Shown here one piece after another: positions 993 to 14,958 of a stretch of 28,322 bases of DNA. The notes under the pieces were generated by a model. That model had not been told where the DNA came from. It was given only the letters and a program-made list of their open reading frames with translations, and made no database searches. Location of the stretch: the IMG/VR virus record IMGVR_UViG_2778261641_000008; one strand, 5' to 3'. Source of the stretch: a virus. Lineage: Duplodnaviria; Heunggongvirae; Uroviricota; Caudoviricetes. Numbering within the stretch: position 1 is the first letter of the stretch; each line of letters begins with the position of its first letter. The translations under genes and the position numbers were made by a program.

Positions 993-1189
993 TACGTATC
1001 CTTATACCTGAAATCTTCGCAAGTATGCCTGGCCGCGAGATTATGGCACACTTGTCCGGTTAACTCTCGTCTCATACAGGTAACACAAACGTGAAAATCC
1101 TTGTTGATGAAAAAAATGATGATTTAATTTATTGATATAAAAGGATTTATATCAGCACGTGTCCACGTAGTGACCACATTTTCGAGTTA

Positions 1190-1231
1190 CAGATAACACA
1201 AAGCCCGTTTTCACGGGCTTTGTGTTATCTG
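1190..1231. repeat. Perfect inverted repeat, 18-bp arms with 6-nt loop (CAGATAACACAAAGCCCG ttttca CGGGCTTTGTGTTATCTG)
   Basis: Read directly from the sequence. It lies between the flk 5' region and the 3' end of the 1260-2153 gene. No U-tract on either side. Confidence 0.85.
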
Positions 1232-1259
1232 TGATTGTGGCTAAGCCACATGATTTATG

Positions 1260-2153
1260 CTATTTCCAGTTACAAGCAGCTTGAAGTGGTTTTAGCGCGT
1301 TTGACAGGCCGTTTAAATTGAAAGTTGCACTTACAGGACTCTCATTATAAGGAGTTATTTTTGTATACATTTTGTTTGAGTTGGCTAGTTTTCGGATGAA
1401 ATCAATGTCATTACCTTTATAAAAAACAGCCTTTGTATCTGTAGATACTAGCCAGTTTCGCTCAACTGCTTTCTGTTTATCAAGACGATAAAGCATGCTG
1501 GTTTGTTCAAGGCCTAAATATACATCCCAACTAAGAAATACTTCGGTTTTCTTTTCTCGGCAAGCTATAAACAGAGTGGGAGTAACCGCTTCTCCAAATG
1601 GAGTTCTGATATAATCATCACTTTCTAACGATAAAATTACATTTTTCGAATCATCAATTGGCGATGTAGTAATGGATGTGTGCCATTTTCCTACATCTGT
1701 GGCTTTCTCTAATTTTGATTCAGCTTGAACAGCTTTATCCTGTGGGAATAGTTTATCGTAGCAGTTTAGTCTGGCTTCTTTATCATTTTCTGCTCGGCAT
1801 TTAGATATCTCAGAAAGATTTGGTTGCTGAGCCTCTGTTGTTACTGGCTTTTCCGTTTTAGATTTTGAGTTTACAGATGGAGTAAATGTTGGAGAAAAAA
1901 AACGATCATAACAAGATAAACGTCTGTCATCATCTTTCTCATCAGGGCATTGATCTCTGCTTTCGAATTTTTCAGCAACTTTCGTTCGAGTCGGTTGTAT
2001 TGACTTATCGTAACAAGAAAGTCTGTCTTTATTATTTTCTATTGCTCGGCACTGGAGTACTGCATTGAAGTTATTATGTTCAGTTGCTGCGTGAACAGGC
2101 AGTACACTAATTGATATAAATGATGCACCTATAGAAAAAATTATATTTTTCAT
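1260..2153 (-). CDS. Secreted protein with signal peptide and three tandem Cys-containing repeats; unknown function
   Basis: 297-aa ORF. N-terminal signal-like segment MKNIIFSIGASFISISVLPVHA. Motif recurs three times: RLSCYDK, RLSCYDRFF, RLNCYDKLF. AT-rich relative to flanks; immediately downstream of the 2158-2490 gene. Confidence 0.6.
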   Translation of the reverse strand: MKNIIFSIGASFISISVLPVHAATEHNNFNAVLQCRAIENNKDRLSCYDKSIQPTRTKVAEKFESRDQCPDEKDDDRRLSCYDRFFSPTFTPSVNSKSKTEKPVTTEAQQPNLSEISKCRAENDKEARLNCYDKLFPQDKAVQAESKLEKATDVGKWHTSITTSPIDDSKNVILSLESDDYIRTPFGEAVTPTLFIACREKKTEVFLSWDVYLGLEQTSMLYRLDKQKAVERNWLVSTDTKAVFYKGNDIDFIRKLANSNKMYTKITPYNESPVSATFNLNGLSNALKPLQAACNWK

Positions 2154-2157
2154 TTTG

Positions 2158-2490
2158 TTATCCTTTTGGTTTAGTAAGAAATACTAAAATTCCGATAATG
2201 ATATCGCCAATAACCCATAAACTTCCAATGGTAATTAAACCTAAGCCTGTACCAATAACTGCACCGGCTTTTTCGGCATCGGATGTAGCATTATTTATTA
2301 TTTCACTAGTGCCTCCCAGTCCAACTAAAAGCGTATAGATCATAAAAATATTAAATAATATAAATATCCACTTAATGAGCTTTCCAAAAAATGAACGCTT
2401 AAGTTTTTTTATTTGTTTACCGCAAGCAGGGCAATACAATGCTGAATCGCTCACCTCTTTCTGGCATTCAGGACATTTGATTAATGCCAT
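2158..2490 (-). CDS. Small membrane protein with N-terminal zinc ribbon (CPEC-x13-CPAC) and two predicted TM helices
   Basis: 110-aa ORF with strong RBS AAGGAGG upstream of ATG at 2490. Hydrophobic segments IKWIFILFNIFMIYTLLVGL and LITIGSLWVIGDIIIGILVFL. AT-rich. Confidence 0.6.
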   Translation of the reverse strand: MALIKCPECQKEVSDSALYCPACGKQIKKLKRSFFGKLIKWIFILFNIFMIYTLLVGLGGTSEIINNATSDAEKAGAVIGTGLGLITIGSLWVIGDIIIGILVFLTKPKG

Positions 2491-2751
2491 GTAATCCGCC
2501 TCCTTTGGATCAATACGAGTTGATATTTGTTACAAAACATTTTGATTTTATCAGATTTTTTTTTATTGATAAGTGTCAATTGATTAGCTGGTATAGAGTG
2601 AGACATATAGAAGGGCAGATCTGTATCAGTAGTGATGCAAAAATCCCACAGTTTCATGGAATTTTTGCATTTAGAGCCGTGAGATAGGGTGCCTTATCGA
2701 CCTTACCCTGGCAACCGATTGACGGGGGATTACTCCCCCGTCGCGGTTTCC

Positions 2752-2892
2752 TTACTGCTTACACTGTAAGAACGCCGCAAACTCCGCTCCCCAGAAACTC
2801 ATCCGTATTTCGCACAGCGAACCGTGCAACATCCAGATGATGAGGATTACCGTCACGCAGAACGTGATGGCTGTAAGCGATTTTTGCGACAT
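2752..2892 (-). CDS. Hok/Gef family type I toxin (46 aa); absent from the ORF track because it is under 60 aa
   Basis: Hand translation of the minus strand gives MSQKSLTAITFCVTVILIIWMLHGSLCEIRMSFWGAEFAAFLQCKQ, stop TAA at 2754-2752. It has a TM helix followed by the SLCEIR...AAF signature I associate with Hok/Gef peptides. A 7-bp stem-loop at 2723-2740 (CGGGGGA ttac TCCCCCG) sits in the 3' region. Confidence 0.7.
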   Translation of the reverse strand: MSQKSLTAITFCVTVILIIWMLHGSLCEIRMSFWGAEFAAFLQCKQ

Positions 2893-3082
2893 AGCACTTG
2901 CTCCTTTTCCGGAGAGGCGCTAACCTTTCACTTGCTTAGGGTAGACGGTTAGGGCCTCGGTTAAACAAAAGTGTTTTCCGGGGCCTTTCCACATCTGGCC
3001 TTCGGGTATTCCCTCCGACCATCAGCCGAAAGGCACCCGCGCGTAATCTATCGCTTTTTTGTTACTCCGGCAATTCTGCTTG

Positions 3083-3534: not shown

Positions 3535-4557
3535 ATGGGAAGAGATATAACGCTGTACCCTAAAAAAGCAACTAGAAACGAACTTAAAAATTACCTTGAA
3601 AATTTAGGTTTTAAAAGGTGTAAACATTTGTGGGAATGGCCCCAAGGAACGTTGAATTACTCTTGGTTTGATGATACGGACTTCAAATCTACAGATGGAG
3701 TTTCGGCTGATATATATCCTGTTTCAAATGACGAATTACACATATCTGGTAATAAATGGGCATTGCATGTGCGTAATTTATATAGCGCTAGTTGGCATGA
3801 TGTAAAAATGCTTAATGATGTTCTAAAAGGCGCAAGGAGTCTTTTTGGTGGAACACTTATAGGTGATTATGGGAAAAATAGGTACGCTCCTCTATGGAAG
3901 GATTCTAGTAGTCCGATCAGTCGTGGCATTTCTTCAATATTTAATCATGTCCATCATGAGATTTCCGCTGTTAAACATGCCTTACCTGAACCTTCTATTA
4001 AATTAAACCTACCGGAAGATGGCGGTTTATCCGAATACTTTGATTACATGCAATGTATGGATCCCAGTAGAGTTATATATAATGGATTAGTACCTTTTGC
4101 GGTTGCTATGTTTGAATACTTTTTCTCTAGAGCTTTTCAAATACTTATAAAGTACGATCCTTTCGCAATAGCAAAAAGAACATCGTATAAGCAAAAAGTT
4201 GATTTTGACATTCTGCTTGAGATAGAGAAAGGAAATATTTCAATAGAAAGTGTTATTGCAAGAAATTACACTTTTCAAAACTTAACCCACCTAAACAAAG
4301 CATATAAAGAGTGGCTGGATATAGATGTGAGAGCGATTCTTTATAAGAAAAAAAGAATTGGAAAATCAGTTGATTTTCTTGAGAATCGAATTTCTGAAAT
4401 CATACAATATAGACATGGGATAGTTCATCACTTTGAGTTGGATAGGACCTTAAATCGGGATGGATATATTCATATATTAGATGCGATAGAAAAAAGCATA
4501 ATTGAATTTATCCATTACATAGAAGGCAAATACAAATTTAAATTAAATGCGTATTAA
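3535..4557 (+). CDS. Hypothetical AT-rich cargo protein (340 aa) with C-terminal RHGIVH (Rx4H, HEPN-like) motif; candidate abortive-infection or defence protein
   Basis: Single long ORF in a markedly AT-rich island. AGGTGA RBS 7-8 nt before ATG at 3535. Hairpin at 4586-4609 downstream. Not recognisable as any P2 core protein. Motif QYRHGIVHHF near the C-terminus. Confidence 0.6.
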   Translation: MGRDITLYPKKATRNELKNYLENLGFKRCKHLWEWPQGTLNYSWFDDTDFKSTDGVSADIYPVSNDELHISGNKWALHVRNLYSASWHDVKMLNDVLKGARSLFGGTLIGDYGKNRYAPLWKDSSSPISRGISSIFNHVHHEISAVKHALPEPSIKLNLPEDGGLSEYFDYMQCMDPSRVIYNGLVPFAVAMFEYFFSRAFQILIKYDPFAIAKRTSYKQKVDFDILLEIEKGNISIESVIARNYTFQNLTHLNKAYKEWLDIDVRAILYKKKRIGKSVDFLENRISEIIQYRHGIVHHFELDRTLNRDGYIHILDAIEKSIIEFIHYIEGKYKFKLNAY

Positions 4558-11626: not shown

Positions 11627-12805
11627 TTATAAAGAATTGCTACTTTCTAATTCTGGGTTTCTGGATCTATTTTTACAACCTAAATCCGAGTGGTAATTCG
11701 GTATATCGTTTGTCAAATCTTGTTTGATAGCATTAATTAAGATCATTATGTCGAATTTATGCATATCGTCGCCCCCTTCAGACCTTAGATGTTCGGATGT
11801 GGTGAGTTGAGTCGCTAATTTGCTGTTTGGCCCCCACACAATATTATTTTCGAATTTTCCTTCATGCATTCTGTTATTATATATACAGTATTGTCTAATG
11901 TTTAATGCACTGGCTAAATGTACAATGGCAGTATCTACAGTTATAACAAAATCAGCATGGCGAACCAATGCAAATGAACATCCGGCATCAGAAAATGGAG
12001 ATAGAGACACATTATCCAATCCATTGTGATTAATCTGTTTTCCCATATTAAAAACTATTGTGTGATATCCCTTAAGGTTATTAAGGTAAGCTAGTACTTT
12101 GTTTATCTGTTCATCAGATAAGGTTCTGCTATTCTGAGAGCCATAAGGGTTAAATATAACTAATTTTTTGTTTTTCTTCCTGAATTCATTTGCAACAATA
12201 TTTGCTGGTTCATATATTTTGTTGTCAAAATTAAGCGCTGCAGCATAATTATTATTTTTTATCTTTAGTAAAGATAAAACTTTTTTCATTCTTTCAGATG
12301 TGTGAATGGAACGATTATCGATTATATTTGTATCAAAAATAGTTACGGCAGGATGATTAAAACAGATAGAGTGTTTAGGTCTAAGTAAATGTAGTGTTTG
12401 CAATCTGGTTATCGCTGTGTTATCAAAATTTGAGAAGTCAACAACAAGATCTACATTCAGTTTTTTTATCTTTGCTTTTAGTTCGTTAAATTTATTTTTC
12501 TCGTAAGATATAAAGGCATCCACGCCAACAATATCAGTAAAGAGGAATGATACTCTTGAAGGTGCTATCACATATACCACCATACCGGATTTTTGAAGTT
12601 GTTTAATAAACCCTGAGGTAACGATGCCGTCACCAATGGCTTGCATGTGCATGAAAATGCACACTGTTTTATAACTATCCGGCTGTAATGATGTTTTCCT
12701 TCTGTATCGCATTTTTAGAAATGCCAGTCTGGCCTTCGTCTTTATCTTTTTTGTTTTAATATTTCGCTGTCTGTTAAGCTGTTTTAATGATGAAATAACA
12801 TTCAT
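11627..12805 (-). CDS. Glycosyltransferase family 9 (LPS heptosyltransferase-like) protein; AT-rich cargo
   Basis: Track ORF is 11627-12865 with a TTG start; ATG candidates at 12835, 12805 and 12712, start unresolved. N-terminal KTVCIFMHMQAIGDGIV and C-terminal FVITVDTAIVHLASALN resemble the WaaC/WaaF-type signatures (SSMGDV and VDTGLSHLAAAL). Confidence 0.65.
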   Translation of the reverse strand: MNVISSLKQLNRQRNIKTKKIKTKARLAFLKMRYRRKTSLQPDSYKTVCIFMHMQAIGDGIVTSGFIKQLQKSGMVVYVIAPSRVSFLFTDIVGVDAFISYEKNKFNELKAKIKKLNVDLVVDFSNFDNTAITRLQTLHLLRPKHSICFNHPAVTIFDTNIIDNRSIHTSERMKKVLSLLKIKNNNYAAALNFDNKIYEPANIVANEFRKKNKKLVIFNPYGSQNSRTLSDEQINKVLAYLNNLKGYHTIVFNMGKQINHNGLDNVSLSPFSDAGCSFALVRHADFVITVDTAIVHLASALNIRQYCIYNNRMHEGKFENNIVWGPNSKLATQLTTSEHLRSEGGDDMHKFDIMILINAIKQDLTNDIPNYHSDLGCKNRSRNPELESSNSL

Positions 12806-13499: not shown

Positions 13500-14611
13500 T
13501 ATGCAAGCCTCACAATATAGTTAAATGCGATGTTTTTTACGGTGTTTTCCGCGTTGCCATAAGCGGCAATGGTAATGGTGTGTGTGTGCGAACCAATAGC
13601 GAGCGTATGTGTATGCGCACCTATTGCTACTGTGTGAGTATGAGCTCCTGCGCTTAATACGCGATTACTTGCTGTCTTGCTTGTGTTAGTTGCATGCATT
13701 CCACCACCGGTACCGGGAGTTTCTGCGTATGCTGAAGTATTGTTGTAAGCAAAGTTGTGTGTATGTGCTCCGGTGTTATTTGTGGATTTAGTTCCGTAAT
13801 CAAACGACGATGTGGTTTTCGTCCCCAAATCCGTACTGGATGCGCTGGCGCTGTGGGTGTGCGATTTAATGCCGTCCTGTTCCTGAGACAATACGGCCCG
13901 ACCACTGGCAGGTTTGCCCTTAATCGTCCAGCCACGCATATCAGGGATCACGCCTGACGGATAAGCGACTGCAAGTTTCGGGTAGGCAGATTTGTCAAAA
14001 GTCTGCCCCTGCATCAGGGCATAACCAGACGGAACGGTATCCGATGGCCACGGGATTGGTGCGCCAGGCGGATAAAACTGCTCTGATGGCGTATAGAGTG
14101 AATAAACTGTACCGTCCGTTAACCCTTCCGGCTTATTAGCAGAATATGCTGGTGACGGATGAATCGTTACGCTGGCATTACTGGTATAATCCCATTGAAT
14201 ATTTACACCAGTCGCATAATTTCCGATTGCAACGTAAATATCGTAAGTATCACCAGATGTATTGACCCAGGCAAAATTTGTAAACCCTGCCGATGTGCGC
14301 TGCCATAAAGCACCAGTAATCCCCTTCGGATTACCATTACCTGCACGCAAAACAATTTCAGATATACCTGCCTGTTGAGGTGAACCGACGTTATATCCAG
14401 CGCCACCAATCAACGTAATTGAAACAACAGAACTCGCCTGTGGCATGGTTACCGTTGCTAATTTGAACCAACCAGCACCACCTCTGAATGACATTGTTGT
14501 TGAGTTAAGCGTACCAATATCTTTCGGTGTCAGTGTTATATCCGCTGAAAGCGCCTTACCATTCACCTTACGGGCAGAAGGTAACGGTTTTAAATTTTCG
14601 TGTTGTGGTAC
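13499..14611 (-). pseudogene. H: C-terminal fragment of tail fibre protein (P2 H-like); N-terminal part missing
   Basis: The frame opens at 14611 with no credible start (track start 14566 is GTG). C-terminal GAHTHT repeats ([24 protein letters not shown]). The upstream neighbour is truncated O rather than the baseplate genes. Confidence 0.7.
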
Positions 14612-14958
14612 TCATGCTTAATCGTCCGGATACTGGAATAGATTTTCTTGCCGTCAGCGACAAGCTGCTTCATGCGCTCGGTCGGTTCGATTTCTGCATA
14701 CAGCGCAGTACGTCCGGCCAGCGGGCCTTCCGTAATATCTTCCGTACTCAGCGCGGTGACATCGCCCATTGCGGAAAATTCGCTTGACGGGCATGGCGAG
14801 AGATAGTGCTCAACGTTCACGCGGGCAGCGTAAACATCCGGGTTGAAGTTCTCGGCGGCTTCACGCAGATGTACCGGGCTGATTTCGCGGCCATCAACAG
14901 TTGATCCGGAGACAGCCACGCGAAACTTTTTGCGGAATGTCTTTTTTTCATTAGCCAT
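14590..14958 (-). pseudogene. O: N-terminal fragment of capsid scaffold/protease gpO, about 122 of the roughly 280 aa expected
   Basis: MANEKKTFRKKFRVAVSGSTVDGREISPVHLREAAENFNPDVYAARVNVEHY parallels the P2 gpO N-terminus as I recall it. The ORF ends after KKIYSSI plus 12 unrelated residues, directly beside the tail-fibre fragment. Confidence 0.7.

Follow-up and report, generated by a model that had tools for sequence, protein, structure and literature searches.

The 28,322-nt stretch filed as IMG/VR virus record IMGVR_UViG_2778261641_000008 (hereafter the window; host E. coli) carries a pair of adjacent genes, one for a 110-aa zinc-ribbon protein with two predicted transmembrane (TM) helices and the other for a 297-aa VasI/TagO-family protein with a predicted export signal. 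We conclude that the pair is very probably a two-gene accessory ('moron') operon occupying a variable slot between hok/ogr and attR of a P2-like prophage (Peduoviridae, ΦSM/P88-type) inserted at the 5' end of pdxB. As to its role, we tentatively favour an envelope module expressed in the lysogen and serving exclusion or protection; localisation, interaction of the products, timing and function are what we infer here from the evidence below. The two genes, both called as open reading frames (ORFs), are the following.

2490..2158, minus strand: zinc-ribbon/two-TM gene, 110 aa
2153..1260, minus strand: VasI/TagO-family gene, 297 aa, product predicted to be exported

The stop codon of the 110-aa gene and the ATG of the 297-aa gene are separated by 4 nt (2157..2154), so the second gene is probably translationally coupled to the first. 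The GC content of the genes is 0.342 and 0.362 respectively, compared with 0.525 for flk and 0.542 for gpD. The pair is flanked on the left by flk (..992) and on the right by hok (2892..2752), and rightward the order continues with hok, a sub-threshold match to sok, ogr, an AT-rich 340-aa ORF, gpD and tail genes. A first-pass annotation of the window had described two co-directional AT-rich genes 4 nt apart between flk and hok, and each of these elements was found in the sequence; that description is right save for the strand, both genes being on the minus strand, and for minor details of the repeats given below.

In prophage-free E. coli genomes flk and pdxB are direct neighbours, and the match to the window extends over positions 1-1113 and into pdxB. 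This limit of homology with prophage-free genomes places the attR junction, at which the cargo slot ends.

1092..1113, plus strand: attR junction, first 7 pdxB codons (GTGAAAATCCTTGTTGATGAAAA)

The insertion fuses these 7 codons to phage sequence (window 1092-1136, plus strand: MKILVDEKNDDLIY*), and the phage provides a new pdxB start at the opposite end of the prophage, which is beyond this window (PMC6456863). The P88/P2-like phage ΦSM has been reported to integrate in K-12 at a 17-bp core at the 5' end of pdxB, and its ORF1 is given as a 'T6SS VasI family protein' among virulence cargo (Magaziner et al. 2019, PMC6456863; T6SS, type VI secretion system).

The pair was found in 237 of the 5426 complete E. 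coli genomes, and is thus not a core locus. P2-like phages from Escherichia, Citrobacter and Klebsiella carry it at their ogr-attR end: the arrangement D-ogr-(hok)-pair-attR was seen in phages 500465-2 (predicted), ΦSM, PhiR44_2, Xuanwuvirus P884B11 and Klebsiella 3LV2017. The VasI-like protein of ΦSM, an active temperate phage of Citrobacter rodentium, is 99% identical to that of the window; the homolog in 3LV2017 is 64% identical, with the annotated attR lying 180 bp past the gene. A sibling prophage at the pdxB site, whose Hok and Ogr proteins are identical, differs in its cargo: Com and a DNA methyltransferase fill the slot of the pair, and a PIN protein stands where the window has the 340-aa ORF, in the adjacent slot. 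As the sibling carries different genes at both positions, two variable cargo slots can be recognized. The pair therefore has the marks of a moron, namely a place between phage genes and the att site, replacement by unrelated genes in a sibling and an atypical GC content. It had earlier been read as horizontally acquired, envelope-associated cargo at the prophage flank; the genome counts, the empty site and the variability of the slot uphold acquisition, while the position needs amending, since the pair is within the prophage, immediately ahead of attR, and not outside it.

With the same prophage type, the same pdxB site and a 99%-identical protein, ΦSM ORF1 (PMC6456863) is in effect this very locus, found in a different host. 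The gene is listed there by annotation alone, and the membrane partner, the repeats, the variability of the slot and a phenotype are not described. In the later GenBank record OR565851.1 (phage Shae_phiSM, L004 3664-4894) the tagO label stands on the 333-bp gene, and the annotation appears to have been swapped. The known cargo hotspots of P2-like phages (tin/old and Z/fun; Rousset et al. 2022, PMC9122126) are also variable low-GC loci at a fixed position, set between conserved genes of the phage and differing in content from one relative to another, and anti-phage cargo is kept in them (PMC9122126; bioRxiv 10.64898/2026.02.27.708500). However, the ogr-attR slot is not among these two classical hotspots and the pair matches no known defence family; neither gene is mentioned in the studies of P2-like hotspots that our literature search found. 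The 297-aa protein belongs to a named family and the locus has already been annotated and mentioned in the literature, whereas the zinc-ribbon partnership, the hairpin module in one, two or three copies with its distribution, and the definition of the ogr-attR slot are added here.

The association of the two genes recurs, as a check on co-occurrence showed. In 66 of the 80 IMG/VR contigs encoding a VasI homolog the 110-aa gene lies directly upstream and co-directional, and these contigs have the order gpD, ogr, sometimes hok, and then the pair at the contig end. Prophages of Enterobacter and Klebsiella that occupy another integration site combine a VasI protein with one repeat and the 110-aa gene through a 4-nt stop/start overlap. 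An E. coli prophage at the ytfP site carries a VasI homolog with two repeats convergent with a different, 98-aa protein composed of a zinc ribbon and a TM2 domain; the architecture matches, but the TM hairpin is unrelated. Alleles of E. coli at 87-98% nucleotide identity were compared for the ratio of non-synonymous to synonymous change (dN/dS), which was 0.07-0.34 for the tagO-like gene, 0.16-0.38 for the zinc-ribbon gene and 0.07-0.17 for gpD. Both genes are under purifying selection, with values similar to those of gpD; chance ORFs were rejected on these values and on the many homologs. The cargo genes of some phages show greater divergence than the hok, ogr and gpD genes beside them, an excess which suggests that the cargo is exchanged between phages.

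We analysed the 297-aa protein further. It matches Pfam VasI (PF11319) at 89.6 bits (gathering score 26.5), with residues 118-296 aligned to positions 1-184 of the 184 in the model, and is thus a family member over the full model, which begins at the third of the hairpins described below. The first-pass annotation had not recognised the pair, a statement that does not hold: beyond the Pfam assignment, the RefSeq/PGAP name of the protein is "T6SS-associated protein TagO", and it is already on record as ORF1 of ΦSM (PMC6456863). It also matches PHROG 1848 (unknown function). The score against the NCBIfam VasI equivalog TIGR03360 was 75.9 bits, below the cut-off of 124.2 despite the RefSeq name, and that against the IalB family (Pfam PF06776) was 20.6 bits, below the gathering score of 22.1. 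Two parts of the protein could be delimited at its ends.

2088..2153, minus strand: predicted Sec signal peptide, codons 1-22 (MKNIIFSIGASFISISVLPVHA, then ATEH), read from the sequence
1263..1691, minus strand: C-terminal beta-rich domain with an IalB-like fold, residues 155-297

The protein has a single hydrophobic segment, which is centred at residues 13-14 and ends VHA|A, and no lipobox was seen at the N-terminus. The signal peptide proposed in the earlier annotation is consistent with this segment, a predicted Sec signal, and the C-terminal domain put there at ~150 aa is present with a size of ~143 aa. An AlphaFold2 (AF2) model run on a 59-sequence alignment gave a helix-turn-helix hairpin for each repeat and a beta sandwich with pLDDT >90 for the C-terminal domain. 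Residues C119, R128, L129, C131, D133 and C198 are invariant and C294 is nearly so; this cysteine conservation suggests one disulfide bond in each hairpin and a fourth in the domain (C198/C294), as would fit a periplasmic protein. A profile search of the PDB with the 297-aa family detected no solved structure by sequence; matches to ATP synthase subunit d and TIM21 were coiled-coil-like and were set aside as spurious. Foldseek comparison with viral models (BFVD) returned the same fold in uncharacterised phage proteins only, those of T4-like phages included.

The motif C-x8-R-L-x-C-Y-D occurs three times in the 297-aa protein, as CRAIENNKDRLSCYD from residue 35, CPDEKDDDRRLSCYD from residue 69 and CRAENDKEARLNCYD from residue 119, and defines three repeats.

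1992..2075, minus strand: repeat A, residues ~27-54, with C35 and C47 (CRAIENNKDRLSCYD), from the motif and AF2 helices 29-35 and 41-51
1890..1973, minus strand: repeat B, residues ~61-88, with C69 and C81 (CPDEKDDDRRLSCYDRFF), from the motif, AF2 and its signature
1740..1823, minus strand: repeat C, residues ~111-138, with C119 and C131 (CRAENDKEARLNCYDKLF), from Pfam and AF2 helices 113-120 and 125-135

The spacing of the motif is fixed in all 91 homologs that carry it, which places the repeats far beyond chance. The three copies seen in the first reading are therefore real and are conserved in homologs, with two corrections: they are spaced by 34 and 50 residues and not uniformly by ~40, and the ending RL(S/N)CYD(K/R)(L/F)F is kept as a motif except that the first copy ends ...CYDKSI. 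The hairpins are joined by low-complexity linkers rich in Pro, Thr and Lys. Homologs fall into length classes of ~210, ~250 and ~297 aa, corresponding to one, two and three hairpins, and each hairpin position has its own conserved signature, that of repeat A being kept in all homologs with three repeats. Repeat C is the copy present in all VasI-family members, and the hairpin adjoining the beta domain is the ancestral one; some homologs with two repeats look like recombinants of B and C.

The hairpin is not confined to this family. A search with the hairpin profile of 1.84 billion representative proteins yielded 328 proteins at E ≤ 0.001, among them proteins that otherwise have nothing in common and bear as many as four hairpins in an array at one end or the other. 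A Pfam scan of 79 of the listed matches, those of ≥140 aa, found VasI in 53, Sel1 repeats in six, Phospholipase A1 in two, Pentapeptide repeats in two and TonB_C in one. Because it recurs on unrelated protein families, the hairpin is a small mobile envelope module without a Pfam family of its own, and the VasI model merely takes in one copy. Tandem arrays of 2-4 hairpins were seen on phospholipase A1, Sel1-repeat, TonB_C and pentapeptide-repeat proteins, some of them at the C-terminus (proteins of up to 1061 aa).

These results bear on the explanation suggested by the family name, that the phage supplies a T6SS helper whose VasI-like protein modifies the T6SS of the host and improves effector delivery as a fitness or virulence factor. 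The PF11319 membership, the RefSeq name and the label of ΦSM ORF1 all agree with it. VasI/TagO proteins (formerly DUF3121; V. cholerae VCA0118) are, like the 297-aa protein, predicted to be exported, and in them too one C-x8-RLxCYD hairpin immediately precedes the same beta domain. VCA0118 is the one member with genetic data: it is dispensable for secretion of Hcp and VgrG-1, but amoebae and E. coli are not killed to the full extent without it (PMC3166118). The 297-aa gene nevertheless differs from T6SS vasI/tagO in its prophage cargo slot, the two extra N-terminal hairpins, the zinc-ribbon membrane partner and the sub-equivalog score. The window has no T6SS genes, the neighbours being flk, hok, ogr, gpD and tail genes, and close homologs with an examined context were in P2-like prophages or orphans, none in a T6SS cluster. 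The constant zinc-ribbon partner is no known T6SS component. K-12 has, to our knowledge, no T6SS. ΦSM lysogenises K-12 strains (PMC6456863). Phages of Brucella and Pasteurella also encode VasI-fold proteins, as do lytic T4-like phages. As far as we know, neither the hosts of the former nor the lifestyle of the latter involves a T6SS. Taken together, we consider a T6SS helper unlikely. The other relative, IalB (invasion-associated locus B of Bartonella; PDB 3DTD; PF06776), shares its fold with the C-terminal domain, but has neither the array of Cys hairpins nor a known phage context or membrane partner.

The 110-aa partner begins with MALIKCPECQKEVSDSALYCPACG and ends ...LTKPKG. Its cysteines C6, C9, C20 and C23 form a zinc-ribbon pattern (CPEC...CPACG, residues 6-23), which Pfam Zn_Ribbon_1 matches over residues 5-26 with 31.2 bits, above the gathering score of 25; the protein also matches PHROG 6586 (unknown function) at 7e-43. 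Kyte-Doolittle peaks and the helices of the AF2 model (34-66 and 71-105, after the zinc ribbon) point to two TM helices, giving a layout of N-terminal zinc ribbon, basic linker and TM hairpin with a short conserved loop, SDAEKAGA, predicted to be periplasmic. There are nine K/R residues before TM1 and two after TM2, and the loop at 60-77 is acidic; this positive-inside distribution and the acidic loop predict an N-in/C-in topology with the zinc ribbon in the cytoplasm. The protein is thus predicted from hydropathy and charge to reside in the inner membrane, and the cytoplasmic zinc ribbon with two TM helices put forward earlier agrees with Pfam, hydropathy, AF2 and charge alike. A length of 110 aa is common to 36 homologs, whose sequence is also strongly conserved.

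Along its full length the 110-aa protein shows a weak similarity to DrpB (YedR), likewise a small inner-membrane two-helix hairpin, which however has no zinc ribbon. Residues 28-109 align to positions 2-84 of the 86 in NCBIfam DrpB/YedR (NF038392) at E 1.4e-4, but with 22.1 bits against a cut-off of 50; hhalign of the family with E. coli DrpB covered 77 columns, including the C-terminal TRPK/TRPR, at a probability of 16% (E 0.0016); and several homologs bear weak PF28000 DrpB flags. All of this similarity is below threshold, and the likeness to DrpB is a weak lead only. Since multicopy DrpB activates Rcs via the periplasmic domain of RcsC (PMC11709261), we weighed whether a DrpB-like hairpin with a zinc ribbon, by itself or jointly with its periplasmic partner, might switch on Rcs (capsule) or touch the divisome, and so alter the lysogen surface through envelope-stress signalling. 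TM segments easily give spurious matches and nothing ties VasI to Rcs, so that, with the similarity at the level given, we regard this as very unlikely. Bacterial proteins with a zinc ribbon and a TM2 domain are small inner-membrane two-helix hairpins too, but their TM hairpins have no significant similarity to that of the 110-aa protein: against the prophage zinc-ribbon-TM2 protein the zinc ribbons alone align, and homology to the TM2 domain (PF05154) was rejected.

Candidate expression signals were found around and within the operon, as listed here.

2545..2572, minus strand: sigma-70-like promoter candidate (TTATCA, 16-nt spacer, TG-extended TAAAAT), from a consensus scan
2499..2505, minus strand: Shine-Dalgarno sequence AAGGAGG, 8 nt before the ATG at 2490, read from the sequence
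1190..1231, minus strand: perfect ~19-bp hairpin, 29 nt past the stop of the second gene, from RNA folding

The promoter candidate is ~55 nt upstream of the first ATG. For the second gene an AAGGA is placed 7 nt ahead of the ATG, inside or adjoining the end of the first gene. Folding of 1150-1262 (minus strand) gave -55.5 kcal/mol (z = -9.5 vs shuffles). The hairpin at 1190-1231 is without a T tract on either strand; it is likely a transcript 3' end or stabiliser, and may instead relate to the att arm. Ogr-dependent late promoters of P2 are marked by a TGT-N12-ACA dyad, and a sequence scan found no such dyad near the pair.

Relative to a sibling of 98% identity in E. coli A8, the window prophage is missing ~11.1 kb (junction 14080-14628; L179 5689-16805). 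The missing block comprises most of the capsid scaffold gene, the genes for major capsid, small terminase, head completion, holin, endolysin, spanin and baseplate, and part of the tail-fibre genes. The window prophage is therefore defective, as capsid, lysis and baseplate genes are gone, and yet the pair is intact. The extended -10 candidate, the lack of the dyad and retention in a prophage that has lost ~11 kb suggest that the pair is not late-expressed. They also bear on the idea of an accessory to the lytic cycle (lysis, tail assembly or DNA entry) and not to lysogenic conversion, for which one could cite that the pair follows the late genes gpD and ogr in the same orientation, and that some other phages have VasI-fold genes among their tail genes. 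In addition to these signals, the replacement of the pair by unrelated cargo in the sibling phage, its absence from many P2-like phages, its atypical GC content and the lack of a lipobox or spanin-like architecture all oppose a lytic role, which we hold to be most improbable. A spanin or holin was rejected on the missing lipobox, the variability of the cargo and the real lysis genes located elsewhere in sibling prophages.

How, then, might the pair act? On the exclusion or protection reading, the operon would be read in the lysogen from its own sigma-70-type promoter and not from an Ogr-dependent late promoter. The 297-aa product would be a Sec-exported periplasmic protein presenting three disulfide-stapled hairpins on flexible linkers followed by the IalB-fold beta domain, and the two products would work jointly at the envelope, the membrane protein anchoring, positioning or regulating its periplasmic partner. 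The hairpins and the beta domain may bind an envelope structure or an incoming machine, such as a phage tail tip, a tailocin or a T6SS spike. The gain for phage and host would be envelope protection or exclusion, and neither product would serve as a structural component of a T6SS. The signalling or exclusion pair that the first-pass annotation put forward as a possibility is a reasonable guess. We favour this reading because the pair lies in a variable slot beside hok/sok and HEPN/PIN-type cargo, because both products are predicted to be at the envelope, and because the pair is independent of a T6SS context and kept in a defective prophage. The envelope location is itself suggested by the signal peptide, the four conserved Cys pairs and the positive-inside topology, and also by the fusion of the hairpin module to phospholipase A1, TonB_C and Sel1-repeat envelope proteins. 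We are doubtful of a bolder form of the proposal, in which the pair would represent an undescribed and widespread Peduoviridae envelope system, either a periplasmic 'interceptor' of contractile injection machines (phages, tailocins and T6SS) or a DrpB-like trigger of envelope-stress or capsule signalling.

The same slot could suggest a membrane abortive-infection or toxin-like module, in which the 110-aa protein, once triggered, perturbs the inner membrane and the periplasmic protein acts as its sensor or restrains it. Small two-TM effectors are common in defence systems, the pair is beside hok/sok and near a HEPN-like gene, and the membrane gene stays intact in alleles where tagO is frameshifted; the known P2-like hotspots, moreover, are rich in defence genes (PMC9122126). 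On the other hand, neither protein matches a PADLOC model, no antitoxin-like partner is evident, and the 110-aa family is solitary and conserved among housekeeping genes in many Proteobacteria (in Haemophilus, flanked by uvrB and a dehydrogenase gene), unlike a toxin. We thus judge such a module decidedly unlikely.

Several observations weigh against an exclusion or protection role. Our literature search found no functional study of a phage-borne VasI or of the 110-aa protein, and the function of TagO/VasI is given as 'Unknown' in a 2026 review (PMC13584744). No PADLOC-DB v2 model was matched by either protein at E up to 1 (hok and the 340-aa ORF were likewise without a match). The alternative cargo of the slot, Com with a methyltransferase, is no exclusion system, so that guilt by association is a weak argument here. 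The promoter and the hairpin past the second gene are consensus or thermodynamic predictions. The link between the genes is not obligate: among 30 full-length homologs of the 110-aa protein in alpha-, beta-, gamma- and epsilon-proteobacteria, 26 lack a VasI gene within 6 kb, and some P2-like prophages carry VasI alone (L148-150 and L173/174), so the two families are separable. Finally, indels of 1-2 nt break the tagO-like gene in several alleles in which the zinc-ribbon gene is intact (L016 5143-6053, on plasmid p602354_148; L118; L125-L129).

VasI/TagO and IalB are long-standing families, and here a whole clade is phage cargo tightly linked to a zinc-ribbon membrane protein. The pair is therefore a simple two-gene handle on the role of the VasI/IalB fold that needs no host T6SS, and the analysis in addition defines a small hairpin module, probably disulfide-stapled, that recurs on unrelated envelope proteins. 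Were the pair truly such an envelope system, the VasI/IalB fold and the C-x8-RLxCYD hairpin module would each gain a first function. P2-like phages abound in E. coli, Klebsiella and Salmonella, and if lysogens are protected at the envelope, the pair would be a new class in their accessory repertoire; if the pair is without a phenotype, it would be one more annotated moron.

Further observations concern the relatives and neighbours of the pair. Solitary 110-aa genes often lie directly after a longer zinc-ribbon membrane paralog, and one is among housekeeping genes. The paralog has 166-235 aa, starts M(G/P)SESLF..C..CGK and precedes the 110-aa gene in Pseudoalteromonas, Photorhabdus, Aeromonadaceae and others; these loci (L022 5477-5977, L028 5284-5991 and L049 5460-5975; also L026, L029 and L042) are chromosomal and without VasI. 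The ogr-hok-pair block is also found on the 148-kb plasmid p602354_148, adjoining a group II intron and IS110.

The neighbouring hok/mokW-type toxin gene (2892..2752, minus strand) matches PHROG 251 at 2.5e-23, and an Rfam sok match at 2879-3038 (minus strand) scored 51.9 bits, just under the gathering score of 59. The 72 bp downstream of hok (2679-2750) recur in hundreds of E. coli genomes without the pair. The 340-aa ORF (window 3535-4557, plus strand, between ogr and gpD; GC 0.34) has a weak HEPN_RiboL-PSP match of 22.5 bits (gathering score 28.4) and an R-x4-H motif (RHGIVH); siblings have a PIN_12 protein or an alpha/beta hydrolase at its position, a second variable slot that possibly holds abortive infection-like genes. 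A glycosyltransferase family 9 gene, so annotated in a sibling, lies at ~11627-12805 (minus strand) between a tail-fibre assembly gene and gpU; the lipopolysaccharide core is the receptor of ΦSM, and this gene could alter the receptor in lysogens.

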